A DNA stretch of 26,000 bases, taken from UHGV virus genome UHGV-0185509; one strand, 5' to 3'. Position 1 is the first letter of the stretch. The number at the start of each line of letters is the position of its first letter. Below are positions 5,283 to 25,294 of the stretch, piece after piece. The position numbers and the translations under genes are program-made. Source of the stretch: a virus. Under the pieces are notes generated by a model that did not search any database, was not told the DNA's origin, and worked only from the letters and a program-made list of their open reading frames with translations.

Positions 5283-5663
5283 ATGAACGACCAGCAAATC
5301 GAAAAAGAAATCGTTGAGAAAGGCAAAACGGCACCGCGAATCACCCCGCAGCACATCGAAGACGTGATTAAAAGCGAGCATTACTTTACTGCTTATGATG
5401 GACGAAATGGTGCCATTTCCAGCAACGAATATTGTGGCAGGGAAAAACCAGAAGAAGGCGATCGTGATTTATCACCATTGAAGTTGCTCACTTTCTGCGT
5501 ACTGGTGCTGAAGAATGGCTTCACCGTTACCGGAGAGAGTGCCTGTGCAAGACCGGAAAACTTTGATGCAGAAATTGGTCGGAAGATTGCCCGGCAGAAT
5601 GCTGTAAACAAAATCTGGATGCTCGAAGGTTACTTGCTGAAGCAGAAGCTAAGCGAACAGTAG
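5283..5663 (+). CDS. conserved phage protein of unknown function
   Basis: 126-aa ORF with good coding appearance; sequence looks familiar from lambdoid prophages upstream of terminase but I cannot name the family. Confidence 0.5.
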   Translation: MNDQQIEKEIVEKGKTAPRITPQHIEDVIKSEHYFTAYDGRNGAISSNEYCGREKPEEGDRDLSPLKLLTFCVLVLKNGFTVTGESACARPENFDAEIGRKIARQNAVNKIWMLEGYLLKQKLSEQ

Positions 5664-5766
5664 TTATTACAAAAGCCATTCCCTACAGAGTGGCTTTGAT
5701 AATGGCTTATACCCTACACGGGATAACTTAACTGATATCCCTTTTAACGGATAAACGGAGCCAACA

Positions 5767-6009
5767 ATGGCAGAGATTATTCCCATGACTGAAGAACAGA
5801 AATTCCAGCTAGAGATTTACAAACTGGTCATGAACCAGAACGCAGCCGCAGAGGAAGCATTTCAGTTCATTGGCACTGACGAACTGAAGCTTGAGCTATT
5901 CAAAATTCACTTCCAGTCAGGCGGCGCTAATTCAGATATCACGACCCGTACTATCGAAGCGGTGCGTAAATCGAAGGAAGCGTTAGACCTTTTCACTACC
6001 GGAGCATGA
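5767..6009 (+). CDS. small acidic helical protein of unknown function upstream of terminase
   Basis: 80-aa ORF directly upstream of the terminase small subunit, a position occupied by a small ORF in P22 as far as I recall. Confidence 0.45.
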   Translation: MAEIIPMTEEQKFQLEIYKLVMNQNAAAEEAFQFIGTDELKLELFKIHFQSGGANSDITTRTIEAVRKSKEALDLFTTGA

Positions 6010-6038
6010 TGCTCAACCTGAAATAACAACTAAGTGAG

Positions 6039-6533
6039 ATGAATATGGCAGCACCAAAGGGCAACCGATTTTGGGAGGCCCGCAGTAGTCATGGGCGAAA
6101 TCCTAAATTCGAATCGCCTGAGGCGCTGTGGGCTGCTTGTTGTGAATACTTCGAGTGGGTAGAAGCTAACCCGCTATGGGAGATGAAGGCGTTCTCGTAT
6201 CAGGGTGAAGTGATACAAGAGCCTATCGCCAAGATGCGAGCGATGACCATTACCGGCCTCACTCTGTTCATTGATGTGACGCTTGAAACATGGCGCACAT
6301 ATCGCCTGCGAGAAGATTTATCTGAAGTCGTTACGCGAGCAGAACAGGTCATCTACGACCAGAAATTCTCTGGCGCAGCCGCTGACCTTCTCAACGCTAA
6401 CATCATCGCCCGTGATTTGGGCCTCAAAGAGCAGTCGCAAGTTGAAGACGTGACACCTGATAAGGGAGATCGCGATAAGCGGCGCTCTCGTATCAAGGAG
6501 CTATTCAACCGTGGAACTGGACGCGATTCTTGA
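6039..6533 (+). CDS. gp3: terminase small subunit (P22 gp3-type)
   Basis: 164 aa (P22 gp3 is about 162 aa); sits immediately upstream of and overlapping the large terminase. Confidence 0.75.
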
Positions 6534-8010
6534 TAACTTGAGCGACGAAGAGCAAATAGAATTGCTCGAGCTACTCGAAGAAGAAGAGAACTACCGGAAC
6601 ACACACCTGCTATATGAATTTACGCCATACAGCAAACAGCGTGAGTTCATCGACGCCGGGCATGACTATCCAGAGCGATGTTTTATGGCTGGTAACCAGC
6701 TTGGTAAGTCATTTACTGGTGCTGCTGAAGTCGCGTTTCACCTTACCGGGCGTTATCCGGGCACAAAAGGCTATCCTGCTGATGGTAAATATGGCGGGGA
6801 GTGGAAAGGTAAGCGTTTCTATGAGCCTGTTGTCTTCTGGATTGGTGGCGAGACAAACGAGACTGTAACCAAAACGACTCAACGCATCCTGTGCGGTCGT
6901 ATCGAAGAGAATGATGAGCCTGGTTACGGTTCCATACCGAAAGAGGACATCATTAGCTGGAAGAAGTCTCCTTTCTTTCCGAACCTTGTTGATCATCTTC
7001 TGGTTAAGCATCACACGGCTGATGGCGTTGAAGATGGCATTTCAATCTGCTACTTCAAACCATACTCGCAAGGCCGTGCTCGCTGGCAGGGTGACACAAT
7101 CCACGGCGTGTGGTTTGACGAAGAACCACCATATAGCATTTATGGCGAAGGTCTTACCCGTACCAACAAATACGGGCAATTCTCAATTCTGACGTTTACC
7201 CCGCTGATGGGGATGTCTGACGTTGTTACCAAGTTCCTGAAGAATCCCAGCAAGTCGCAGAAAGTGGTCAACATGACCATCTATGACGCTGAGCACTACA
7301 CCGACGAGCAGAAAGAGCAAATCATTGCATCCTATCCCGAGCATGAGAGAGAGGCGCGTGCTCGCGGTATTCCTACGATGGGTAGCGGACGAATCTTCCA
7401 GATACCGGAAGAGACGATTAAGTGTCATCCGTTCGAGTGTCCTGATCACTTCTACGTAATTGGCGGGATGGATTTCGGATGGGATCACCCACAGGCGCAG
7501 GTTCAGCTTTGGTGGGATAAGGATGCAGACACAATCTACGTTTCACGCGTGTGGAAGGCGAAAGAAAAAACAGCCGTTCAGGCGTGGGGAGCTGTTAAAT
7601 CATGGGCGCATAAAGTGCCAACAGCATGGCCTCATGACGGAAACCAGCACGAGAAGGGCGGCGGTGAGCAGCTCAAAGGGCAGTATGCCGACGCTGGTTT
7701 TATGATGTTGCAGGAGCATGCGACATGGCCTGATGGCGGTAACGCTGTGGAGCCTGGCATCACTGAATTGCGCGACATGATGCTCGATGGTCGCTTCAAA
7801 GTATTCAACACCTGTGAGCCATTCTTTGAGGAGTTCCGCCTCTATCACCGTGATGAAAACGGGAAGATCGTCAAGCTTAACGACGACGTGCTATCAGCCG
7901 TTCGCTATGCATACATGATGCGCCGCTTCGCCAAAATGATGCGCGACATCAAAAAACCAAAAGAGAAAAAGATACCAGCCCCAATCAGGCCCATCGCACG
8001 GAGAACTTAA
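6511..8010 (+). CDS. gp2: terminase large subunit (P22 gp2-type)
   Basis: 499 aa, the length of P22 gp2; GTG start at 6511 overlaps the small-subunit 3' end; nuclease-like C-terminal region. Confidence 0.9.
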
Positions 8011-10176
8011 ATGGCCGACGAAAACAGACTCAATTCCATTCTGTGTAAGTTTGACGCAGACTGGATGGCGAGCGATGAAGCCAGAACCGAGGCGACAAAT
8101 GACCTGTATTTTAGCCGAGTGTCGCAATGGGATGACTGGCTATCAAACTACACCACCCTGCAGTATCGCGGACAATTCGATGTTGTCCGCCCGGTTGTCA
8201 GGAAGTTGGTCGCAGAGATGCGCCGGAACCCTATCGACGTTCTCTTCCGACCAAAAGACGGTGCTAATCCTGATGCTGCCGATGTGCTGATGGGGATGTA
8301 TCGTACTGATATGCGCCATAACACGGCAAAAATTGCCGTTAACGTTGGCGTTCGTGAGCAGATAGAGTCCGGCGTTGGTGCATGGCGTCTGGTCACGCAG
8401 TACGAAGACAACGATCCAACAAGCAACAATCAGGTAATCCGACGCCTGCCAATCCATGAGGCCTGCTCACACGTCATATGGGACGCAAACAGCAAGCAGA
8501 TGGATAAGAGCGACGCTAAGCACTGCACGGTGATTAACGCTTTGTCACGCAATGGCTGGAAAGAGTTCGCAGAGGATTACGGTATTGATCCTGACACGCT
8601 GCCATCTTTCCAGAATCCGAACGATACATGGCTGTTTCCGTGGGTATCGAATGATGTCGTCTACGTCGCTGAGTATTACGAGGTCGAAGAGAAGAAAGAG
8701 AAGGTCTTCATCTACCGCGACCCGCTGACAGGTGAGCCGGTCAGCTATTACCAGCAGGATATCAAAGACGTCATCGACGACCTGGCTAATCGTGGATTCA
8801 TTAAGGTAGCAGAGCGCAAGGTGAAGCGTCGGCGTGTGTATAAGTCGATCATCACCTGCACGCAGATACTGAAAGACCGCGAGAAGATAGCTGGAGAGCA
8901 TATCCCAATCGTTCCTGTGTACGGCGAATGGTCATTCGCTGGTGACAAGGAGTGCTACGAAGGAGTGGTAAGGCTGACGAAAGACGGTCAACGCCTTCGT
9001 AACATGATCATGTCGTTCAACGCCGATATCGTTGCCCGTTCACCGAAGAAGAAACCGACCTTCTTCCCTGAGCAAATCGAAGGCTACGAATACATGTACG
9101 GTGGAAATGATGACTATCCGTACTATCTGCAGAACAGGACCGATGAAAACGGTAACGACCTGCCGATTGGTCCAATCTCCTACATGGAAAACCCTGAAGT
9201 GCCGCAAGCCAACGCTTACATGCTTGAGGCTGCCACCAACGCAGTGAAAGAGGTGGCTAGTCTTGGCGTGGATGCGCAGGCGGCAAACTCTCAGGTCGCT
9301 TTCGATACCGTCAATCAACTGAACATGCGGGCAGATCTTGAGACATACGTGTTTCAGGATAACCTGGCTACCGCAATGCGACGTGATGGCGAGATTTATG
9401 CCTCAATGGTCAACGATATTTATGACGTTCCTCGTCATGTAACGCTGACACTTGAAGATGGAAGCGAGAAAGACGTTCAACTCTATGCGCAAGTTGTCGA
9501 TTATCAGTCCGGCAATGTGGTCACACTCAACGACATTCGCGGTCGCTATGAGTGCTATACGGACGTTGGGCCATCCTTCCAGAGCATGAAGGAACAGAAT
9601 CGCGCAGAGATTCAGGAGTTGCTAACCAAGGTTCCGCAAGGTACTCCAGAGTTCCAGATGCTGATGCTGCAATACTTCACGTTGCTTGACGGTAAAGGCG
9701 TCGAGATGATGCGAGAGTACGCGAACAAGCAACTGGTGATGATGGGGCTGAAGAAACCAGAAACACCTGAAGAGATGGAGATGGTGCAGCAGGCACAACA
9801 ACAGCCGCAGCAGCCATCAGCAGAGCAAATTCAGGCGCAGGGTATCCTTCTGCAAGGTCAGGCTGAATTGCTCAAGGCAGAGAACCAACAGGCGCAGATT
9901 CAGGTTGAAGCCGCCAAGGTTGAAGCCCAAAACCAACTCAACGCCGCGAAGATTGCAGAAATCTTCAACAATATGGACCTCGACAAGCAGGCAGAACTGC
10001 GTGAGTACCTCAAGCTCGTAGGTCAATTCCAGCAACAGCGCAGCAAAGATGCTCGTGCTAACGCTGAGCTGCTTCTTAAAGATGCAGACCAGACTCATTC
10101 ACAACGCATGGATTTCGCGAATCTTATGCGTCAAGTTCAAATCCCCTCCGGCGGAGTAGCCGAGACACCTCAATAA
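8011..10176 (+). CDS. gp1: portal protein (P22 gp1-type)
   Basis: 721 aa (P22 portal 725 aa); Gln/Ala-rich helical C-terminus ([18 protein letters not shown]...) typical of the P22 portal barrel; ATG immediately follows the terminase stop. Confidence 0.9.
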
Positions 10177-12677: not shown

Positions 12678-13155
12678 TTTAGTTCTTGCGGCATTACGTA
12701 AGCTCGGTGTGGCATCAAATGCCACGTTAACCGATGTCGAACCGCAGTCTATGGAAGACGGCGTCAACGACCTTGAAATGATGATGGCTGAATGGCTTGG
12801 CGGTGATGCGTCACCTGGGATCAACGTTGGCTACATTTTTGCTGATGCAGATGTCGCTCCAGATCCGGGCGATGAGCACGGCTTATCAAATAACGCTATA
12901 AATGCCGTCATTTTCAACCTTGCCTGCCGCATTGCTCCAGATTATGCGCTGGAAGCGTCTGCAAAACTTATAACCACTGCCAGATACGGGAAAGAGCGAC
13001 TCGTCAAACTGTCTGCAATGGACAGAGCAAAAGCCGCTAAATGTAAGTCCGGTTATCCAAACCGTATGCCTGTTGGTAGTGGTAACCAGTTGGCGAAGTG
13101 GAACGGTTGGAATTACTTCCAGCGAAAGGAACCTTGCGATAACGGGAGCGAATAA
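12655..13155 (+). CDS. gp4: head completion / portal-plug protein (P22 gp4-type)
   Basis: Start placed at internal ATG 12655 to give 166 aa, the P22 gp4 length; [27 protein letters not shown]...[13 protein letters not shown] matches P22 gp4 as I recall it. Confidence 0.85.
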
Positions 13156-14573
13156 TGCCGATTCAGCAACTTCCGCTTATGAAAGGTGTCGGCAAAGACT
13201 TTAGAAACGCTGACTATATCGACTATCTGCCAGTGAATATGTTGGCTACACCCAAAGAAATACTCAACAGCAGCGGATATCTTCGCTCATTCCCGGGCAT
13301 TGCCAAACGTTCTGATGTGAATGGTGTATCGCGCGGCGTCGAGTACAACATGGCGCAGAATGCTGTTTATCGCGTATGTGGTGGCAAGCTGTACAAAGGA
13401 GAAAGCGAGGTCGGTGATGTTGCCGGAAGTGGTCGCGTATCAATGGCGCATGGTCGGACATCACAGGCTGTAGGCGTTAATGGTCAACTGGTCGAATACC
13501 GCTATGATGGCACGGTTAAAACCGTCTCAAACTGGCCTACAGACAGCGGATTCACGCAGTATGAGTTAGGTTCGGTCCGTGACATTACGCGCTTACGTGG
13601 GCGTTATGCGTGGTCAAAAGACGGTACTGATTCATGGTTTATCACTGACCTTGAAGACGAATCGCATCCTGACCGCAACAGCGCACAATATCGTGCCGAG
13701 TCGCAGCCTGACGGAATCATCGGAATCGGAACATGGCGAGACTTCATTGTCTGCTTTGGTTCATCGACGATTGAATATTTCTCCCTGACTGGTGCAACCA
13801 CTGTTGGTGCCGCGTTGTATGTCGCACAGCCATCGCTGATGGTGCAAAAAGGCATCGCCGGAACTTACTGCAAAACGCCGTTTGCTGATTCCTATGCGTT
13901 TATCAGCAATCCGGCAACAGGTGCGCCGTCTGTGTATATCATCGGCTCCGGTCAGGTATCACCAATCGCCAGCGCGAGCATTGAGAAAATACTACGCTCC
14001 TACACTGCTGATGAACTGGCTGATGGCGTGATGGAATCGCTGCGGTTTGATGCGCATGAGTTGCTGATTATCCATCTCCCGCGCCATGTTCTTGTTTACG
14101 ACGCATCTTCAAGCGCTAATGGTCCGCAATGGTGTGTGCTGAAAACAGGCCTGTATGACGATGTGTACCGCGCTATCGACTTCATTTACGAAGGCAATCA
14201 GATAACGTGCGGCGATAAGCTGGAATCTGTTACCGGGAAACTGCAATTCGACATCAGCAGCCAGTACGACAAGCAACAGGAACACCTGCTGTTTACTCCG
14301 TTGTTCAAAGCAGATAACGCCAGAGTTTTCGACCTTGAAGTTGAATCTTCAACTGGCGTTGCGCAGTACGCCGACCGCCTTTTTCTCTCTGCAACAACTG
14401 ACGGCATCAATTACGGACGTGAGCAGATGATTGAGCAGAATGAACCGTTCGTTTACGACAAACGCGTTTTGTGGAAGCGTGTCGGGCGAATCAGGAAAAA
14501 TGTCGGCTTCAAACTTCGCGTTATCACGAAGTCACCTGTAACTCTGTCTGGCGTTCAGATAAGGATTGAGTAA
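13155..14573 (+). CDS. gp10: tail hub protein (P22 gp10-type)
   Basis: 472 aa, the P22 gp10 length; conserved position; ATG overlaps gp4 stop (TAATG) with GGGAG upstream. Confidence 0.85.
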
Positions 14574-15274
14574 TGGCGGATTCATCACTGAATAATCCTG
14601 TCGCGGTTCAGGCTACGCGCCTTGATGCTTCAATTTTGCCACGCAATATATTCAGCCAGTCTTACCTGTTGTATGTCATTAATCAGGGGGCTGATGTCGG
14701 CGCAATTGCCGGGAAGGCAAATCAGGCTGGTCAGGGCGCTTACGATGCCCAGGTAAAAAACGATGAACAGGACGTAGAACTGGCTGATCACGACGCAAGA
14801 ATCACCGCAAACACAAAAGCGATAAATCTCCTTGAGGTCAGGTTAACAACCGCCGAAGGGAAGATAGTCGTACTGCGTAGCGATGTTGATTACTTGCTGG
14901 ATGAGGTTATCGATATTCAGGCGCATTTGGTCACAGTAGATGGAAAACTGCATGGCGTAGAAAACGATGTCTCTGGTATTAAGGCTGATTACGTATCGAA
15001 GTCAGCAACGGATGCGCAATCACTGTCGTCCGCCCTCAACGTGACGACATCATATGCAGTTAACGGAACTCAGGTTGTAGGTTCAAGAAAGACAGGATGG
15101 ACTGCTGCAATAGGAACTCCATATAGGGGTTATTTTAATGCTGACTCTGTAATGCCTGTTGGTGCAACATACAGTCAGTCAGAAGTTCAGGCAATAGCAA
15201 ACAACTTGCAGGTAACTCTAAGGCGTCTAAAAGCCCTTGAGGACGATGTGAGATTACATGGGCTGATTGACTGA
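14573..15274 (+). CDS. gp26: tail needle protein (P22 gp26-type)
   Basis: 233 aa, the P22 gp26 length; central heptad-like helical region; ATG overlaps gp10 stop. Confidence 0.8.
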
Positions 15275-15729
15275 TGATTGCATTCAAACCAACGCGAAAC
15301 ATCGACCTGATAGAAGCAGTCGGAAATCACCCTGACATTATCGCCGGGAGCAATAACGGTGATGGGTACGACTACAAACCTGAATGCCGTTACTTTGAAG
15401 TGAATGTGCACGGGCAGTTCGGCGGCATTGTTTACTATCAGGAGATTCAGCCTCTGACATTCGATTGCCACGCCATGTACCTGCCAGAGGTTCGCGGATT
15501 CAGCAAGGAAATCGGGCTGGCTTTCTGGCGATACATTCTGACTAACACCACCGTTCAGTGCGTCACATCGTTCGCTGCGCGCAAATTCCGCCACGGTCAG
15601 ATGTACTGCGCAATGATTGGCCTTAAGCGTGTAGGAACCATCAAGAAATACTTCAAAGGCGTGGATGACGTGACGTTTTACAGCGCCACACGCGAAGAAC
15701 TAATCGACTTCCTGAATCACGGGAGATAG
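15274..15729 (+). CDS. gp14: head/ejection-associated protein (P22 gp14-type by position)
   Basis: 151-aa ORF in the gp14 position between needle and gp7; start overlaps gp26 stop; assignment mainly by synteny. Confidence 0.6.
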   Translation: MIAFKPTRNIDLIEAVGNHPDIIAGSNNGDGYDYKPECRYFEVNVHGQFGGIVYYQEIQPLTFDCHAMYLPEVRGFSKEIGLAFWRYILTNTTVQCVTSFAARKFRHGQMYCAMIGLKRVGTIKKYFKGVDDVTFYSATREELIDFLNHGR

Positions 15730-15731
15730 CC

Positions 15732-16424
15732 ATGTTATATGCATTTAAGCTGGGCAGAAAACTGCGCGGCGAGGAACCTTATTGCCCTGAAAAAGGCGGA
15801 AAAGGTGGCAGTTCTGATAAAAGTGCAAAGTATGCCGCAGAAGCTCAGAAGTATGCCGCAGACCTGCAAAATCAACAGTGGCAGACGATCATGAAAAACC
15901 TTGCTCCGTTCACGCCGCTTGCGGAGCAGTATGTTAACCAGCTTCAGAACCTTTCCAGTTTAGAAGGACAGGGGCAGGCACTTAATCAGTATTACAACTC
16001 TCAGCAGTATAAAGACTTGGCAGGTCAGGCTCGCTACCAGAATCTTGCTGCTGCGGAGGCGACGGGGGGACTTGGTTCGACAGCCACAAGCAATCAACTG
16101 GCTACGATTGCTCCGACTCTCGGTCAGTCGTGGTTATCAAACCAGATGAGCAACTACAACAATCTGGCAAACATTGGCCTTGGTGCGCTGCAAGGTCAGG
16201 CGAACGCCGGGCAGACATACGCCAACAACATGAGCAGCATTGCACAGCAAAGCGCAGCACTTGCCGCTGCTAATGCCAATAAACCATCAAGTCTTCAGAC
16301 TGCAATTAGCGGTGGCACGTCTGGTGCGATTGCCGGTGCAGGTCTTGCCAGCCTTTTGGGAACATCAACACCTTGGGGCGCTGGCATTGGTGCTGGTATC
16401 GGATTGCTTGGCTCGTTGTTTTAA
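15732..16424 (+). CDS. gp7: ejection (internal virion) protein, P22 gp7-type
   Basis: 230 aa (P22 gp7 229 aa); N-terminus MLYAFKLGRKLRGEEPYCPEKGGKGGSS matches P22 gp7 as I recall it; Gly/Ala-rich C-terminus. Confidence 0.85.
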   Translation: MLYAFKLGRKLRGEEPYCPEKGGKGGSSDKSAKYAAEAQKYAADLQNQQWQTIMKNLAPFTPLAEQYVNQLQNLSSLEGQGQALNQYYNSQQYKDLAGQARYQNLAAAEATGGLGSTATSNQLATIAPTLGQSWLSNQMSNYNNLANIGLGALQGQANAGQTYANNMSSIAQQSAALAAANANKPSSLQTAISGGTSGAIAGAGLASLLGTSTPWGAGIGAGIGLLGSLF

Positions 16425-16433
16425 GGGGTAATC

Positions 16434-17822
16434 ATGGCTACTTGGCAAGGAACAAATGGCGGATTGTTGGCTGGTATCGGCGGCGTCAACTCAAACGCTC
16501 CGAGCGTAAATGACATCGGCAATACGCTTCAGCTTATCAGGCAGAACAATGATATTGAGCGTTCAGGCGCTAACAATGTTGGGCTGACTGCTTTGCAAGG
16601 CCTTTCAGGTATTGCGGGGGTGTTTCAGCAGGAGAAGCAGGCTCAGCGGCAGAAAGAATTTCAGCAGGCGTACGCTAATGCTTATGCGTCTGGTGATCGC
16701 GGTGCTTTGCGTCAGTTGGCTACTCAATATCCAGACCAGATTGAATCCGTTCGTAAAGGCATGGGATTCATTGATGAAGACCAGCGTAATTCTATCGGCA
16801 CCTTAGCGGCTGGCGCACGCCTTGCGTCATCGTCTCCAGAAGCAATGCAATCATGGCTGCAAAACAACGCCAAGGAACTGAATCGCGTCGGTGTTGACCC
16901 TAATAACGTTGCTCAGATGTATCAGCAGAATCCTTCAGGATTTGGTGAGTTTGTTGATCACCTTGGAATGGCTGCTCTTGGTCCGATTGATTACTTCAAT
17001 GTTCAGGACAAGATGGCTGGTCGTGAGATTGATCGCGGAAAACTTGCAGAGACAATCCGCAGCAATCAGGCTGGCGAGGCGCTAACAGCACGAGGCCAGA
17101 ACATCACGATGCGCGGTCAGGACTTATCTGCTTCTACTGCGCGACGAGGTCAGGATTTGGCAATGCAGCGAGCGTCAACAAGAGGAATCGCTGGGAATGA
17201 TGAGCGTACAGTTCAGTTATCAGATGGCAGAACTGTAACGGTAGGCGGGAAGCTTCACGGCGCTGGGGCTAATGCGTTCTACGAAGGCATCGACAACGAG
17301 GGGAATATGGTTCGCGTTCCTGCCAGTTCAATCGCAGCGCCTGCAACATCGTCTGCATCAGCACAAAACTATGCCATGAAGAAGGATATCGACGCGATCG
17401 CAAATGCAGACGCTTCTGCTCTCGATTTCATGACAGGAATGACAGGCGGTGCAGGTAATCCAGCAATTGGTGCTGATGTTCGTAGCCGATTAACAGGAAA
17501 AGAGCAGCGCCAGTTATATAACTCAGCACAACGTATTCAGGGCAGAATGCAGAATCAGGGTGTGGCGGCAGCAAGGGACATGGGTGCCAGTGGTATTAAC
17601 ACCGTTGCAGAAGCGAAGATGTATTTTCAGGGGATGCCGCAGGTTGACTATTCAAGCCCGGAGGCTATGCAGCAGTCGATTCGTGAAATTCAGGAATACA
17701 CCAACAATTACAACCAACAATATAACGTTAATGTTGGTAAATCTCAGCGGAAGCAATCTCAACCTGCACAGGTATCACAGCCAGCAGCCAGCAGTAACTT
17801 TTCTTCACTATGGGGTGATTAA
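16434..17822 (+). CDS. gp20: ejection (internal virion) protein, P22 gp20-type
   Basis: 462 aa (P22 gp20 about 471 aa); conserved position; Gln/Ala-rich low-complexity composition typical of ejection proteins. Confidence 0.75.
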
Positions 17823-20125
17823 TGGCTAAAGCATGGAAAGATGTTATCGCCTCTCCACAGTATCAGGCGTTAGCACCAGAACAAAAAGCGCAGGCTCAGG
17901 AGCAATACTTCAATGAAGTCGTGGCCCCGCAAGCCGGAGAAAATGCAGATCAGGCTAAGCAAGCTTTCTATGATGCCTATCCATTGCCTTCAATGCAGAC
18001 AGAACAGCAGGAAGTAGGGCAATCTCCTGATACCATTCAGCAAGACAAATCACTTATGCAGCGTGCAGGAGAATGGCTAACAGGTGGTCAAAGTGCAGGG
18101 CAAATTGCAGAACAGTCTGGTCGTGGTCTGGTAAACATACCATTTGACGTATTGCAGGGTGGCGCAAGTCTGATTAATGCAATCAGTCAGGGGCTTGGGG
18201 GGCCAAAAGTATTGGATGATGTTTATCGTCCAGTAGACAGACCGACAGACCCCTACGCGCAAGCTGGAGAGTCAATAGGCGGTTATCTTGTTCCTGGAGC
18301 AGGTGTAGCTGGAAACATGGTCATTGGTTCTCTCGCTGACGCGGCGAATCAACGGGGTGATTTTGCCGAAAATGCCGCTATTAATGCCGGACTTAACATT
18401 GCTACGCATGGCCTGATAAATGGCGTTACCCGTGGTGTTCGTGGCGCATCAAATATAATTAGTGGCAATAAAACATCTGCACAGAGAGCGACCACTGCGC
18501 TAACAGAAACATCACCATTCTCCGGTGATGCCGCTGCAGCAACAAATCCTGCGGTTCATGCCGCAGAGGCAAGAGTAGCACAAGGTGTACCAATGACGCC
18601 TGCGACGAGGAACCCAGAGGAAGTCGTTCGCACAGTAGCAGCACAAAAAAGGCCAAATCTCGCTTCATCGCTTGATGAACTAGATATCAATCCTCAGGCT
18701 GAAGTTCTGGAGTCTGCTGAAAGGCTTAATGTTGATTCATTACTCCCTTCACACTTTTCCGGGAACGAGCAATACAAGGCAGTTGAGCAAGCAATCAAGT
18801 CCCGTGCGGGTTCTGCTCTACAGGTGCAGGAAAATGAAGCAATCAGGCAGCTAGCACAGGGCGCGGGGGAGATAATTGATCGCGTTTCCGGTGCAAAAGA
18901 TGCTCTTGGTATGAGCGACAAGTTTATTGATACGGTCAATGGAAGAATGTCTGCGCTGATGAAACGAAGCGACCAGCTTTATCGCAATGTTGAAAAGGCG
19001 ATGCCTGCAGGTGCAAAAATTGATGCGCCATCAACAAGGTCAATGCTCAAACAGGTGGCAGAAGATCTTGGCGGGATGAAAAACCTTGACCCTATTGAAA
19101 AGAGAGTCTTTCGGGCAGTTAATCCAGGCAAGAACGGCGCATTAACTTATGCAAATCTCAATAAGCAACGACGACTTGTTGGTGATGCACTTCATAAGAA
19201 TTCTGGACCATATAAAGATGCTGATCGCGCTGCTTTATCGAGGCTTTACGGTTCGCTCGCCGATGATCAAAAGGCGGCGCTGTCAGAGACAAATGCATTA
19301 CGTGATTTTGAAGTTGCTCAGAGGCTTGTTCAGATGCGAAAAAGCATGGAAGAGCAAATGATTAATCTAACTGGCAGAACGCTGAACGGTGATGTTTCTC
19401 GCAAAGCAACTACAGCACTACAGGCAATGTCGAAAGGCGATGCCAAAGGATTTCGTGAATTGATGCAAAACACGCCGTCCAGGAAGCTAAGAACCGAGCT
19501 ACTGGGAACAGGTCTTCGGGATATGCTTTCGAACGGAAAACGTGGCGCTGATTTTAATCCTGCAGGGTTTGCTGACTGGTATCAAAACATGTTAGCAAAC
19601 GGGCAGATGCGCAATCTTGCCCGACATTTACCAAAAGAGACTATGTCAGGTCTGAACGATGTATATAAGGTCGCAAAGGCTATCAAAGACGCAAAATCTT
19701 ACGAGATAACTACAGGAAGACTAAACGAGTTCGTAAAACGGTTTAATCGCGTCACTGCGGCAAATGAATTTGTTGCTAACCATGCCCAACGCATTGGCAC
19801 TGCGGTTGGTTCAACTGTGTCAGGACCGTTTAGTGCAGTAGGTGCTGTTGCTGGGTCAGAAATTGGGGCAAAAGTCGCCAGCAAAATCAGGGCGATGGGC
19901 GGCGCTGAATCAATTGAATCTGCAGAAAAGCTAATTAGCTCACCAGAATTCCAGAAAGCAGCAAGGCTGGCAGTAAAACAAGCACCAGAAAGCATCGTTG
20001 ATACAACTGTAAGACGCTCTTCTGCTTGGCGCTCGTTTTACAACTCACTTCCAGAATCAGATAAGAAAACCATATCAAGGCTAGGCATCATGTACTGGAT
20101 GAACAGTGATGATAACCAGAAGTAA
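17822..20125 (+). CDS. gp16: ejection (internal virion) protein, P22 gp16-type, unusually long
   Basis: 767-aa ORF in the gp16 position (P22 gp16 about 609 aa from memory); start overlaps gp20 stop; assignment by synteny and composition. Confidence 0.7.
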
Positions 20126-20142: not shown

Positions 20143-20403
20143 TTAGTTGCTGTCTTTTTTATATAAATCTCTGAGCGTATCAAAGACAATTTTCTTTACC
20201 ATATCAGATTGTTGTTCTGCCATACGCTCTGCATCGTCAATGTAAACAGATGCAGAGCTTTGTTTAGCCAATGATTCTTCAATCGCTGCAATTATCTCTG
20301 AGTTCAGCGACCTGTTATTCATCTTCGCACGCTGTTTAATTTTCGCGTGAAGCTCATGCGGAAGTCTCAAGTGAAACTGCGCCTCGTCGTATTTGCTGTA
20401 CAT
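20143..20403 (-). CDS. mnt: Mnt-like ribbon-helix-helix repressor (Arc/Mnt family)
   Basis: C-terminal region (NDAERMAEQQSDMVKKIVFDTLRDLYKK) and N-terminal RHH strand (FHLRLPHELHAKIKQRAKMNNRSLNSEI) match P22 Mnt as I recall it; start placed at the ATG giving 86 aa with an AAGGA Shine-Dalgarno; the ORF track extends it to a TTG at 20487. Confidence 0.8.
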   Translation of the reverse strand: MYSKYDEAQFHLRLPHELHAKIKQRAKMNNRSLNSEIIAAIEESLAKQSSASVYIDDAERMAEQQSDMVKKIVFDTLRDLYKKDSN

Positions 20404-20538
20404 CCTTGATGCCTCACCAAATGGGTGGAATGGCATCGTAAAACCTACTGTACAAATCAACAATAGTACCGTTTCGGTATGTAACAAATGCCAACCGTAG
20501 CCATGCTGCGGCGATTCCTTGTATCTGGAGCAAATTAA

Positions 20539-22401
20539 ATGACAGACATTACAGCCAATGTGATCGTATCAATGCCTTCGCAACTCTTCACTATGGCGCG
20601 TTCTTTTAAAGCCGTAGCCAATGGAAAAATTTATATCGGTAAAATTGACACTGACCCGGTAAATCCTGAAAACCAGATTCCGGTTTATGTAGAGAACGAA
20701 GACGGCTCTCACGTTCCTGTTTCGCAACCAATAATCATTAACGCTGCCGGATATCCGGTATATAATGGACAGATTGCCAAGTTCGTAACTGTGCAAGGCC
20801 ATTCCATGGCTGTATATGATGCGTATGGTTCGCAGCAGTTCTATTTTCCGAATGTGCTGAAGTATGACCCTGACCAGTTTAGACAGGTTATAGAGGGGCC
20901 TGACGGGGCTTACGATGTTGGGTACACAACAGCATTTAATAATAATGAGATAACCGTTGGAGATGCGCTCGATAATAAAATTCCTAACATTATTGGTAAC
21001 GTTGATGTGCCACCAACTGGGTTTATTTTCCATCCATTCACAAGATATAGCGGAGACCATGACTTGCGATATATCAACGGTGGAAACCCCAAATCAATTA
21101 AAAGGCTGAAGAAGACGGGTAATGCCACCGTCACGCTCAACCCTATCACCACTGAGGGTTCCAGCCCTAGCAAGTTAACCGTCGATACAGTAGGGTACGT
21201 TAACCCGGCAAACGCCGACCCCGACGGCACTACATTTCCGGCAGGAATAAAAATTGATGGTGTCACATTTGAAGGGGACGATGCCGGCGGGCAAAGCGGT
21301 TTAACAATACTGCAAGGACACAATTTTCAGATTAAAGAATGCGGATTCTCTAAAACAAAGATTGCGATATGGTTACGTGACGTATGGATGTCGTCGGTAA
21401 GAGACTGTAGTTTGTTCGGACAGTACCTACAAGAGGGTGGAACCAGCATGACTATTGAGAATTGTTATGCGACAGTGCACGACAGCACGGTGACTCCTGG
21501 AGCATTCAGAATTTCAAATCTTCAATACTCATCCATGTCTAGCTGCGCTTCTGATGGCACCGTAAATACAGCGTATTACTTCAACGGTAATAACGGGCTT
21601 AAGGTAACGAGTTGCGGTTCGGAAGTACCAACAGCTCTAGACAAAAACTACGGGACAGCCGCGCATTTCGAAGAAAGTAACGAGATGATACTTGATAATT
21701 TCTACACATTACCTGCTTCGGGTAGCAATATTCTGTTCTCTATAAAAAACAACAACGATCTTGTATTCAATAATACTATGGTTTACGGGGATCCGGCAAA
21801 ATGGAGTCGGGATTTCTGGTTACTTGGTTCCGGGAATAAAGTAGTTGTTAATGGGGGGACTTTTGGGAATACAGGGCGTATCCCGTTGGTGGCAACTAAC
21901 GCTGCTGGTAACACGTTTATCTACAACAGTACTGATGGCAATAGCTACATCGCTAAAACGACTGGCGCGGCTATCACTGTAACCCTTGAACCTAAATTCC
22001 TTAGCAAAACTCTGGATCTTACATCCGATGTGGTCTTTGCAAATAGTGGCCCAGTTACTGGTGGAACCAAGGACATTAAGTTCACTAAGAGTGGTAACAT
22101 TGCTACGGTAGAATTTAATATCACCATCCCTGACATATCTGGCAAAGTAGGTCAACTTTTGATAAATGGCTTACCTTATGCTGCGGCACAGTCTGGTAGC
22201 GGTAGTGTATCTATAGCTTTAGGTCTTGCCACAGGGGTTGGTAATATCACTTGTGTAATACTAAGGGATGACAACCAAATTATGTTTTACAAGTCAACTA
22301 CAACTAGTGGTGTGTCTTCAGCTCTAGGTCCATCTGACTTAATTAATGGGAGTAGTTTAAGGGGGAGCATTACTTACTCCTGCGTGTCTGACTGGGATTA
22401 A
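20539..22401 (+). CDS. gp9: tailspike protein: P22 gp9-type N-terminal head-binding domain fused to a different receptor-binding (beta-helix) body
   Basis: 620 aa; first ~110 aa ([11 protein letters not shown]...[38 protein letters not shown]...[16 protein letters not shown]...NVLKYDPDQ) match the P22 tailspike N-terminus, while the remainder has no resemblance to the P22 body that I can see. Confidence 0.9.
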
Positions 22402-22482: not shown

Positions 22483-24006
22483 TTATTTGCAACTAATCTT
22501 TCTAAAATCAATGACAAAATACTTGTCATTCACAAATGTATTATACATTTGTCCTTTTGAAACCATTTTCATTTCGCATGGGTTAATCGTATAATTGGCA
22601 TTCTCTATGGGATTCTGTATACCAAACATTTTTATCATACCTTTTCCCCACCATCCATTATTATAGTAAAGAGGAACAACTGAAGAGAGGGAGGGAAATC
22701 TTCTTATAGCATTATCTCTTTGCGGAGATGAAGGTTGCACTCCAAAAAACATGATGGTTTTTGTGGCCTCTGGATCGTTACGTGATATTTCCTCTGCCAT
22801 GATATGCGATAAAAAATAATCAAATTTATTTTGAGCGTCCATAGCACTTCCAAATGCGTATGAGTAGACTAGAAGCGGTAATACGAAAGGTGTTGATAAT
22901 ATGATATGATGCTTAAAGTTTTTAATTAAAGAAAAATAAGATATGCCAACTAATAGCATAAATCCGCTAAACGAAGCCATGACTCTATCTGAGAATACTG
23001 GATATTTTAATAAACATAAATGTATTGCAGCAAATGCCATTATTATTAATGGAGATATCAATAACAAAATAATTATAATTAAATTTAAAAATGATCTTCT
23101 GTTATTGTTAAATATTCCAATGGCTGTCTTTATAATAAATATTGAAACTGTAGCCAAGGAAATTAATGAAAGTAATAGCATGCCATTAACATATAGCAAC
23201 ACCATTGATAAAAATGCCAATGCATTATTTATGAAAATATTAATTCCTTCACGATCAATACTTATTAATGTGGAGTGCTCAATGTTATATTCTCCGAATA
23301 CGAAGTGAGCTGAAATGTTGCTATATATAAAGTATCCAACAAGTAATTGCGCAGCTCTACATAAAATATCTATAATTAGGTCTAGTTGTTTTGTGTATTG
23401 CTTATTAGATGCGTTAATTATGAATTCTATTACTGCCAGACACACAAAAAATCCTATAACAGCCTGGTACAAGCAAAGGGATATAACAACGAAAGAAACT
23501 GAGAAAAACCATTTTAATAATTTTGAACTGTACGATAGGAACGGGAGCAGCATAAGTGACAACGCTGCTATCATTGGTACAACATCGAATTTATAAGATA
23601 AATTTTCAAGCAGAAAAGGGTTTGCAATAATTAGAAAGCATATAACGGCTGAAGCTATGCTATTAAAGTGGTTAAGGTTTGAACGAAAATATAAATATGC
23701 GCATATAATAAAAATTATTATCCCGATAAATAATGTAAGCGGAGAAATGTCAATTGTTGACTCTGCATTCAAGTTAACTAAAGACATTAATAGGTCCGCA
23801 AGAGGTCTTCCATTTGAACTCCATCCAAAATAACCATCCTGTGCTCTTCCAAGATCGTCTATGTAGTATCTATTGGCAATTATTATCGGGATGATATAAA
23901 TAAAACAAAGAGATGATAAATATATTAAAAATAATTTACCTTTTGAGTCCATATGATATTTAATAATTTTATGGCCAGTAATTAATTTGCTCATTGTATA
24001 ATCCAT
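22483..24006 (-). CDS. serotype-specific O-antigen glucosyltransferase (GtrC / Gtr-type family), polytopic membrane protein
   Basis: 507 aa, multiple hydrophobic segments, very AT-rich; sits immediately downstream of gtrA-gtrB in the same orientation, the canonical position of the type-specific gene. Confidence 0.8.
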   Translation of the reverse strand: MDYTMSKLITGHKIIKYHMDSKGKLFLIYLSSLCFIYIIPIIIANRYYIDDLGRAQDGYFGWSSNGRPLADLLMSLVNLNAESTIDISPLTLFIGIIIFIICAYLYFRSNLNHFNSIASAVICFLIIANPFLLENLSYKFDVVPMIAALSLMLLPFLSYSSKLLKWFFSVSFVVISLCLYQAVIGFFVCLAVIEFIINASNKQYTKQLDLIIDILCRAAQLLVGYFIYSNISAHFVFGEYNIEHSTLISIDREGINIFINNALAFLSMVLLYVNGMLLLSLISLATVSIFIIKTAIGIFNNNRRSFLNLIIIILLLISPLIIMAFAAIHLCLLKYPVFSDRVMASFSGFMLLVGISYFSLIKNFKHHIILSTPFVLPLLVYSYAFGSAMDAQNKFDYFLSHIMAEEISRNDPEATKTIMFFGVQPSSPQRDNAIRRFPSLSSVVPLYYNNGWWGKGMIKMFGIQNPIENANYTINPCEMKMVSKGQMYNTFVNDKYFVIDFRKISCK

Positions 24007-24023
24007 GTGATTCCGTAGTTTGT

Positions 24024-24935
24024 CTATTTTTTAATGATATATCTTGGTCTTGATTTAGACTCTATATATATTCTACCTATATACTCACCAAGAACCCCTA
24101 TCCCAATCAGTTGTACACCGCCTAAAAAGAGGATTGATACAAGTAAAGATGGGTATCCACGAACAGAATTACCAAAAATTAGAGTGTCAAAAATCATCCA
24201 TGAGCCATATATAAATGCTAGCCCAGCGACTAATAAACCAATATACGTCCACATGCGAAGAGGGAAGGTCGAGAAGCTCGTGATACCCTCAAGTGCTAGG
24301 TTCCACAATTTCCATCCATTGAATTTAGAGTCACCGGCAACACGTTCTGCCCTCGCGTATTCCACAACATCTGTGCGACCGCCAACCCAACTCAGCACAC
24401 CTTTCATAAAAAGGTTGCGCTCTGGCATAAGCTTAATGTTTTCGACAACTTCACGGCTCATTAACCGGAAATCGCCGACATTCTCCTCGATCTTTGGGTT
24501 GCTTATTTTGTTGTGCAATTTATAAAACCACTCTGCCGTTTTGCGTTTCAGTCGTCCGTCAGTTGAGCGATCAGTTCGCTTAGCCAGCACCATATCAGAG
24601 CCTGCCTGCCACTTTTCGATGAGGTGGGGAATAACCTCAATCGGATCTTGCAGGTCAACATCAATTGGAATTACAGCATCTCCGGTTGCATGGTCTAGCC
24701 CTGCAAACAATGCTGGTTCTTTACCAAAGTTTCGTGTAAATGACAGCGGAACAACCAGCGGGTCTGAAACAGCCAGAGCATTAATAATTGACTCCGTAGC
24801 GTCTTTGCTTCCGTCATTTATGAAAACAATTTCCACTTCATATGGCTTCAACTCTTCGAATTCACGTACCGTTTTATAAAAAATTGGTATCGCTTCTTCT
24901 TCATTGAAGACAGGAACTACAAGAGATATCTTCAT
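24024..24935 (-). CDS. gtrB: bactoprenol glucosyltransferase GtrB (GT2 family)
   Basis: 303 aa; N-terminus ([19 protein letters not shown]...INDGSKD) is a GT2 signature with DxD-like region ([10 protein letters not shown]) and two C-terminal TM helices, as in GtrB. Confidence 0.9.
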
Positions 24936-25294
24936 TTCGTATCCCTAAAGACAATGAACTTTGAATAGACGAAACCGCACACCAGACTGATGGCGGAGAA
25001 GGTGATAAGAGTGATAATTGGAGGAAATGAGCACTTATCAGCAGCCCATCCAACAGTAGCACTCAGTGTTCCCATGAACCCGACATATAACATGTAGCGC
25101 ATCGTTGTAGTCGATGCTTTGAATGTGAATCTTGCATTCGCGAAGAAGCTAAAACTCACAGCCACAACGAAACCTGCGAAGTTTGCAAGAGCTTGATTGG
25201 TATGCGCGCCATAGATACATACACCAAAAACCACCCAGTGTATAAGTGTGTTCAGCACACCAATCGAGGTGTACTTTGCAAATAGCTTTAACAT
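24932..25294 (-). CDS. gtrA: GtrA flippase-like small membrane protein
   Basis: 120 aa, four hydrophobic segments, start motif [20 protein letters not shown]; overlaps the gtrB start by 4 nt; first gene of the three-gene gtr operon. Confidence 0.85.

Follow-up and report, generated by a model that had tools for sequence, protein, structure and literature searches.

The ejection proteins of the P22-like phages are the closest described counterparts of the gene studied here. In P22 the ejected proteins gp7, gp20 and gp16 together make up a channel of ~50 nm, in which gp20 is the periplasmic tube and gp16, a protein without a strong transmembrane helix, forms on that tube the part of the channel that crosses the cytoplasmic membrane (bioRxiv 10.64898/2026.09.03.749273). 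Among the virion genes of these phages, those for gp16 and gp20 vary most and are mosaic, and the two proteins must match each other (PMC10461980); P22-like gp16 proteins range from 609 to 722 amino acids (aa), with that of P22 the smallest tabulated (Swanson et al. review, PMC8954989). Our analysis concerns a gene 16 homologue in the UHGV virus genome UHGV-0185509, the whole 26,000-nucleotide stretch of which is referred to here as the window. A previous sequence-only reading of this DNA had remarked that the protein is about 160 residues longer than P22 gp16, and had proposed that an extra segment could carry an added activity or alter host range. The gp16 homology and the length excess stand; a discrete segment with an activity or a host-range role of its own is not supported. 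We conclude that the gene very probably encodes a normal, functional gp16 allele recombined from circulating modules, in which the excess is dispersed and no catalytic activity has been added.

The open reading frame (ORF) lies at 17822-20125 on the forward strand, starts with ATG and encodes 767 residues, as had been given from the ORF listing; P22 gp16 is indeed 609 aa long (P22 gene 16 is 1830 nucleotides (nt) in length; see also PMC8954989), and the excess is a real one of 158 residues. The placement in the gp16 position was also right. With neighbors identified by Pfam and PHROG matches, the order is 10, 26, 14, 7, 20 and then this gene, which closes the run of three ejection-protein genes (7, 20, 16) and is followed by an immunity/tailspike region with mnt. 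Its naming as a gp16 homologue is borne out by 80% identity to P22 gp16 in the core and by a colinear match to phrog_770, 'DNA transfer protein' (residues 19-720 to positions 3-651 of the 668 in the profile, expect value (E) 3.7e-156). The ATG is preceded by a Shine-Dalgarno-like GGGGTGA and overlaps the TAA stop of gene 20 by one base (TAATG at 17820-17824), a translationally coupled start whose overlap is also present in the annotated coordinates of P22, HK620, Sf6, ST160 and ST64T. A chance ORF was rejected because Escherichia coli PM7 has a copy with 100% nucleotide identity, the protein's own 90%-identity cluster (P0001) holds 887 member sequences, and the ratio of nonsynonymous to synonymous substitution rates (dN/dS) against phage Sf101 gp13 is 0.10. 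Of 5426 complete E. coli genomes, 50 match at least 80% of its length. The ORF is evidently a real, intact gene of a P22-like (Lederbergvirus) prophage.

The length of the window gp16 is ordinary; such lengths, or greater ones, are usual outside the P22/ST160 type. The sequence-only reading had itself named common lengths of this kind as a reason to discount its proposal, and other gp16 types do prove comparable in length or longer. Among the named phages gp16 measures 609 aa in P22, 637 aa in ST160, 658 aa in ST64T, 665 aa in Sf6, 719 aa in CUS-3 (PMC8954989) and 722 aa in HK620; the third ejection protein of Kapi1 has 722 aa, and gp13, the gp16-position protein of Sf101, has 911 aa. In a database of 5.8 billion proteins the median length is 777 aa among the 120 best relatives of the window ORF, and those of P22 gp16, also the best 120, all fall within 599-649 aa. 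When the 98 full-length cluster representatives that carry the window C-domain were sorted by N-terminus, 41 shared the window hairpin at that end (722-884 aa, median 777), 36 an SLT N-terminus (752-969 aa, median 885) and the other 21 a different one (701-767 aa). A query with the core only (residues 60-214) against the representative library returned 29 proteins, many of them fragments, whose full-length matches span 701-1219 aa. Thus the window protein is 158 residues longer because P22 has the shortest class of gp16.

The extra residues are dispersed and do not form a discrete segment. A spread-out, low-complexity expansion was the other outcome that the sequence-only reading had said would count against its proposal. 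A profile built from 102 window-type sequences and another from 124 sequences of the P22/Sf6 type were aligned in hhalign; they yield a single colinear alignment of window residues 24-686 with P22 residues 4-561 (E 1.5e-43, driven by the core), and this places the excess over P22 gp16 at four points: about +24 in the N-terminal part; +71 in a spacer, where residues 217-292 have no P22 partner; about +30 net in the all-alpha domain, in blocks of at most 14 residues and after subtraction of 16 P22-only residues; and +33 in the unaligned C-terminal tail (81 versus 48 residues). The spacer takes the largest single share, about 45%, and this largest block is of low complexity and predicted to be disordered. 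It is poorly conserved, varies from 34 to 118 aa across relatives, and holds essentially all of the 45-residue difference to HK620. Between residues 225 and 246 it contains two repeat units in one copy each, of 11 residues (18494-18526) and 10 residues (18530-18559); in alleles otherwise 92-98% identical the 10-residue unit is present once, twice or three times and the 11-residue unit once or twice (multi-copy alleles are P0002, P0008, P0009 and P0013). Such differences in copy number between near-identical alleles indicate slippage-type length variation in the spacer, and residues 215-293 are predicted to behave as a variable, disordered spacer and not as a domain.

The modules of the protein were delimited by BLASTP, blastn and an AlphaFold2 model (mean predicted local distance difference test score, pLDDT, of 76), which agree with one another (Table 1). 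The DNA encoding the N-terminal hairpin is Sf6-like, with 96.7% nucleotide identity to Sf6 over window positions 17791-18002, and the same hairpin is common to Sf6, HK620, ST160 and ST64T; P22 and Sf101 have other N-termini. Identity to Sf101 begins at window position 18049 (gene nt 228), and the switch from Sf6-like to Sf101-like nucleotides falls at ~18003-18048; the recombination boundary between the two kinds of DNA lies within the Gln-rich junction. In the core that follows, residues 77-209 are 80% identical to residues 53-189 of P22 gp16, and the core is 97% identical to that of Sf101 (BLASTP), with 77% in the profile-profile alignment. Its 138 residues include 24 Gly, and its hydropathy peaks at 103-121, 156-174 and 185-203 mark it as a candidate membrane- or gp20-interacting part; PF26808 is precomputed in a large database both for relatives of the window protein and for P22-type proteins. 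Within the all-alpha domain, residues 658-676 (19793-19849) form a hydrophobic segment rich in Gly, Ala and Ser. Hydropathy gave no strong transmembrane helix anywhere in the protein, only the moderately hydrophobic, Gly-rich segments 103-121, 156-174 and 658-676. The tail carries residues that are near-invariant in its class (W736, F739, L743, R753, G755 and W759). Judged by these similarities, the protein is a recombinant mosaic of an Sf6-type N-terminus, a conserved core and Sf101-like residues from 77 to 767.

The names given to relatives of this gene suggest another explanation of its length, namely that the additional residues are an added enzyme, most plausibly a peptidoglycan lytic transglycosylase. 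Sf101 gp13 is annotated as 'transglycosylase' or 'lytic tail fiber protein', the PGAP name for the identical E. coli gene is 'lytic transglycosylase domain-containing protein', and phrog_21143 and phrog_29864 bear transglycosylase-type names. The searches give this idea no footing. Pfam and NCBIfam scans of the ORF found no family, even at permissive E-values, a search of PDB sequences with a 73-sequence profile returned only a chance match (E 0.08), and neither domain nor fold matches indicated an enzyme; an SLT (PF01464) or goose-type-lysozyme-like domain with a catalytic Glu was looked for in the protein and is absent. The names trace to the SLT domain of Sf101-type proteins. In Sf101 this domain (PF01464, E 3.3e-25) occupies residues 7-110, upstream of residue 203 where the similarity to the window protein starts, and phrog_29864 is merely the N-terminal half of P22 gp16. 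An added enzyme was rejected on these grounds and is, in our estimate, extremely unlikely. Sf101 gp13 (5342-8077) and the 36 SLT-type representatives (among relatives P0025-P0100) do have the SLT domain, at the N-terminus of the protein in the gp16 position. A muralytic module like that of T7 gp16 is therefore present in some P22-like phages and prophages.

A second reading follows from the public annotation, in which the identical PM7 copy is described by RefSeq/PGAP as 'incomplete; missing N-terminus and C-terminus' and entered as a partial pseudogene over gene nt ~226-1287. The gene would then be a decaying remnant of an SLT-bearing, Sf101-type gene, and it fits this that most E. coli genomes with the C-domain match only from nt 228 and have a different, often SLT-type, 5' end. 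We give this reading hardly any credence. All 767 codons are open behind a coupled start, the N-terminus is genuinely that of an Sf6/HK620-type gp16, 41 cluster representatives have the exact architecture, in addition to the 887 members of the protein's own cluster, and the low dN/dS goes together with identity to Sf101 at 686 of the 691 residues from 77 to 767. The ORF is thus intact and shows purifying selection, and it lacks an SLT domain. In the PM7 record (NZ_CP073996.1, 6726-7787) the pseudogene annotation spans only residues ~76-429 of the intact 767-codon gene, and it looks like an annotation artefact that stems from truncated or SLT-bearing Sf101-type entries.

By their sequences, the gp16 proteins of P22, ST160, Sf6 and ST64T fall into a 'short' class and the window protein into a 'long' one. 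The C-part of HK620 gp16 matches that of the window protein in an hhalign alignment of 459 columns that runs to the C-terminus (probability 100%, E 1.3e-43), and phrog_6704 matches residues 224-763 at positions 167-706 of its 707 (E 4.9e-81). In tblastn searches the C-part is 27-32% identical to the C-termini of proteins encoded after gp20-like genes in RSK1 (1280 aa), sortkaff (1007 aa) and Kapi1 (722 aa). In Kapi1 (Lederbergvirus), RSK1 (Firingavirus) and sortkaff (Sortsnevirus) alike, the third ejection protein terminates in this all-alpha long-class module of ~480 residues. The homology to HK620 and the presence of the same module in these three phages place the window protein in a widespread class.

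Several observations weigh against the interpretation of the protein as an ordinary gp16 allele with P22-like function. Homology between its C-terminal 550 residues and the P22 class is weakly supported: BLASTP detects no similarity between the window C-part and the C-parts of P22 or Sf6, and hhalign with the C-parts alone aligns 348 colinear columns with a score of 34 (P 0.002, probability 14%). The residue-level map of insertions and deletions beyond residue 214 is for this reason only approximate. The AlphaFold model of P22 gp16 has low confidence (mean pLDDT 50.5, from a shallow alignment with at least 73% identity), and we therefore limited its use to the order of secondary structure and the overlap of BFVD match lists. 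In none of the six reference phages compared is a P22/ST64T-type gp20 C-half, as found in the window, paired with an Sf101-type gp16 C-domain; compatibility of gp20 and gp16 in the window phage is assumed, and the function of the window allele is read across from P22.

The weak similarity could mean that the C-terminal 550 residues are a non-homologous module fused to the core, bringing a different inner-membrane step or a different sensitivity to exclusion of the SieA type. The ejection proteins of HK620, whose gp16 C-part is of the same class, partly escape P22 SieA (the hybrid at an efficiency of about 10%), and those of CUS-3, with gp7 and gp20 near-identical to those of HK620, do not (PMC10461980). 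We nevertheless hold a non-homologous module to be improbable. The alignment is colinear over 348-397 columns, the larger number coming from the global mode of hhalign (P 5e-5), and exceeds every control: none of 20 block-shuffled sequences exceeded a score of 28, most of their alignments spanning fewer than 75 columns, and the reversed sequence reached 22.5. The profile phrog_770 spans both classes end to end, matching P22, HK620, Sf6 and the window protein, and detects the window C-part alone with E 1.5e-66. The order of helices and isolated bridges runs parallel in the P22 model from ~237 and the window model from ~332, in the hhalign register, and 22 of the 40 BFVD matches of the P22 model (E at most 1e-3) recur among the 43 of the window model; the shared matches are all phage proteins of 430-1060 residues, several labelled injection or LT_GEWL-domain. 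HK620-class proteins also replace those of P22 in hybrid phages (PMC10461980), which indicates that the mechanism is at least equivalent, and a difference in SieA sensitivity is compatible with an ordinary homologous C-part as well. The comparison with P22 beyond the core is only moderately solid.

The window protein most likely plays the part that gp16 plays in P22, finishing the DNA channel through the inner membrane; the conserved core, the similarly modest hydropathy and the HK620-class C-domain all favor this role. Recombination would have assembled the gene from an Sf6-type hairpin (residues 1-59), the core (77-214), the spacer (215-293) and a long-class C-domain and tail (294-767). By analogy with P22, the protein would be packaged in the capsid, leave it through the gp7/gp20 conduit, join the cytoplasmic membrane and assemble there where the gp20 periplasmic tube ends, so that the DNA channel reaches the cytoplasm, with the spacer perhaps serving as a flexible tether. 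A host-range role for the extra length finds no support, for the divergent ejection proteins of Sf6, L, HK620 and CUS-3 all function in P22 on Salmonella in hybrid phages (PMC10461980). These results argue against gp16 type setting the host species, and make a species-level host-range role unlikely; the protein might have a part in how sensitive the phage is to superinfection exclusion.

A more far-reaching proposal, to which we attach a low likelihood, is that the N-terminus of the long class is an exchangeable 'cargo slot', filled by SLT or by the 59-residue hairpin at the same disordered junction, and that the repeat-bearing spacer of 34-118 aa tunes how far the C-domain can reach from a core that docks gp20 and acts on the membrane. 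The choice of allele, here in combination with a P22/ST64T-type gp20 C-half, would then set sensitivity to SieA-like exclusion or the fit to envelope geometry, and gp16 variation would not be neutral mosaicism.

Table 1. Coordinates of gene 16, its modules and its neighbors in the window.
Feature	Position	Strand	Match or remark
gp10	13155-14573		PF11134
Tail needle gp26	14573-15274		phrog_1219
gp14	15274-15729		PF11039
gp7 homologue, 230 aa, first ejection protein	15732..16424	+	PF25688 P22_gp7, E 1.4e-134
gp20 homologue, 462 aa, periplasmic-tube partner of gp16	16434..17822	+	PF16928, E 5e-78
Gene 16 homologue, intact 767-aa ejection (DNA transfer) protein	17822..20125	+	stop codon 20123-20125 included
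N-terminal helical hairpin, residues 1-59	17822..17998	+	pLDDT 89-96, helix 19-52
Gln-rich junction, predicted disordered, residues 60-76	17999..18049	+	pLDDT <50 for 58-76
Gly-rich, moderately hydrophobic core, residues 77-214	18050..18463	+	in all gp16 types
Ala/Thr/Pro-rich variable spacer, residues 215-293	18464..18700	+	pLDDT 31-52
All-alpha domain of HK620/Sf101/Kapi1 'long' class, residues 294-686	18701..19879	+	pLDDT mostly >90
Helical C-terminal tail, residues 687-767	19880..20122	+	pLDDT 79-93, conserved within long class
Arc/Mnt-type repressor	20143-20487	-
Tailspike with P22 head-binding domain	20539-22401		PF09008
Cassette of gtrC-like, gtrB-like and gtrA-like genes	22483-25294	-	PF14264, PF00535, PF04138

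The partner protein gp20 is itself mosaic in the window (blastn and blastp segments). Its N-terminal half is 95% Sf6-like at the nucleotide level and 91% Sf101-like, and its C-terminal half (window ~16999-17983) is P22/ST64T-like at 81-82%. Sf101 couples the same gp16 C-domain with another type of gp20 C-half, and the occurrence of differing gp20 C-halves with one gp16 C-domain suggests that compatibility between the two proteins is not located in these two variable parts.

Downstream of gene 16, the repressor ORF of the Mnt/Arc type comprises 114 aa when read from a TTG. Its homologues are annotated as shorter (97 aa in Sf101, 86 aa in PM7 and 83 aa in P22 Mnt), and for this reason translation probably begins at an internal ATG. 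Residues 1-113 of the tailspike make up the conserved P22 head-binding domain, and the receptor-binding part best matches phrog_21710, a family of unknown function; similarity to Sf101, Sf6 and HK620 stops at ~20822-20879. In PM7, with its identical gene 16, the tailspike is of another kind and longer (721 aa), and the gtr cassette is absent. An identical gene 16 beside differing tailspikes points to a recombination junction just past the head-binding domain. The gtr genes, an O-antigen glucosylation cassette, sit 3' of the tailspike and are typical serotype-conversion cargo; the GC content of the gtrC region is 29-31%, against ~50% in the virion genes.

Mosaicism of gp16 in size and sequence is already known for the P22-like phages (PMC10461980, PMC8954989), and identical or near-identical sequences are public. 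Our analysis adds that an excess in length of this kind is not to be read as a gained domain, and that the name 'lytic transglycosylase', like the pseudogene status that RefSeq gives identical copies, is carried over from SLT-bearing or truncated relatives. The map of hairpin, core, spacer, alpha domain and tail could aid the design of ejection-protein hybrids or of SieA escape.

Set beside the known systems, the window protein is closest to gp13 of the Shigella/Enterobacteria phage Sf101 (YP_009153087) and to the homologue in Escherichia phage APC_JM3.2, which occupy the same genomic position. It shares with Sf101 gp13 the core, spacer, alpha domain and tail, with 98.5% DNA identity over gene nt 228-2304, and differs from it at the N-terminus, where Sf101 has ~200 residues with the SLT domain and the window protein has the 59-residue hairpin of the Sf6 type. 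HK620 gp16 has the same type of hairpin, the core and a homologous C-domain and tail, with 36% identity over 707 columns but only about 23% in the C-part; CUS-3 gp16 is placed with HK620 by the literature alone. P22 gp16 resembles the window protein in its position and coupled start, its core and phrog_770 match, the weak colinear similarity of the C-part and an all-alpha prediction. It differs in an N-terminus that begins MKVTANGK and is predicted to form short strands first, in having no spacer, and in a shorter and very divergent C-domain (11-25% identity in the profile alignment); P22 also has sieA downstream, and in the window no sieA lies between gene 16 and mnt. T7 gp16 (1318 aa), likened here by function and not by sequence, is the third and largest ejection protein of its phage and completes the inner-membrane channel (PMC8954989); it is nearly twice the length of the window protein and begins with a transglycosylase domain.

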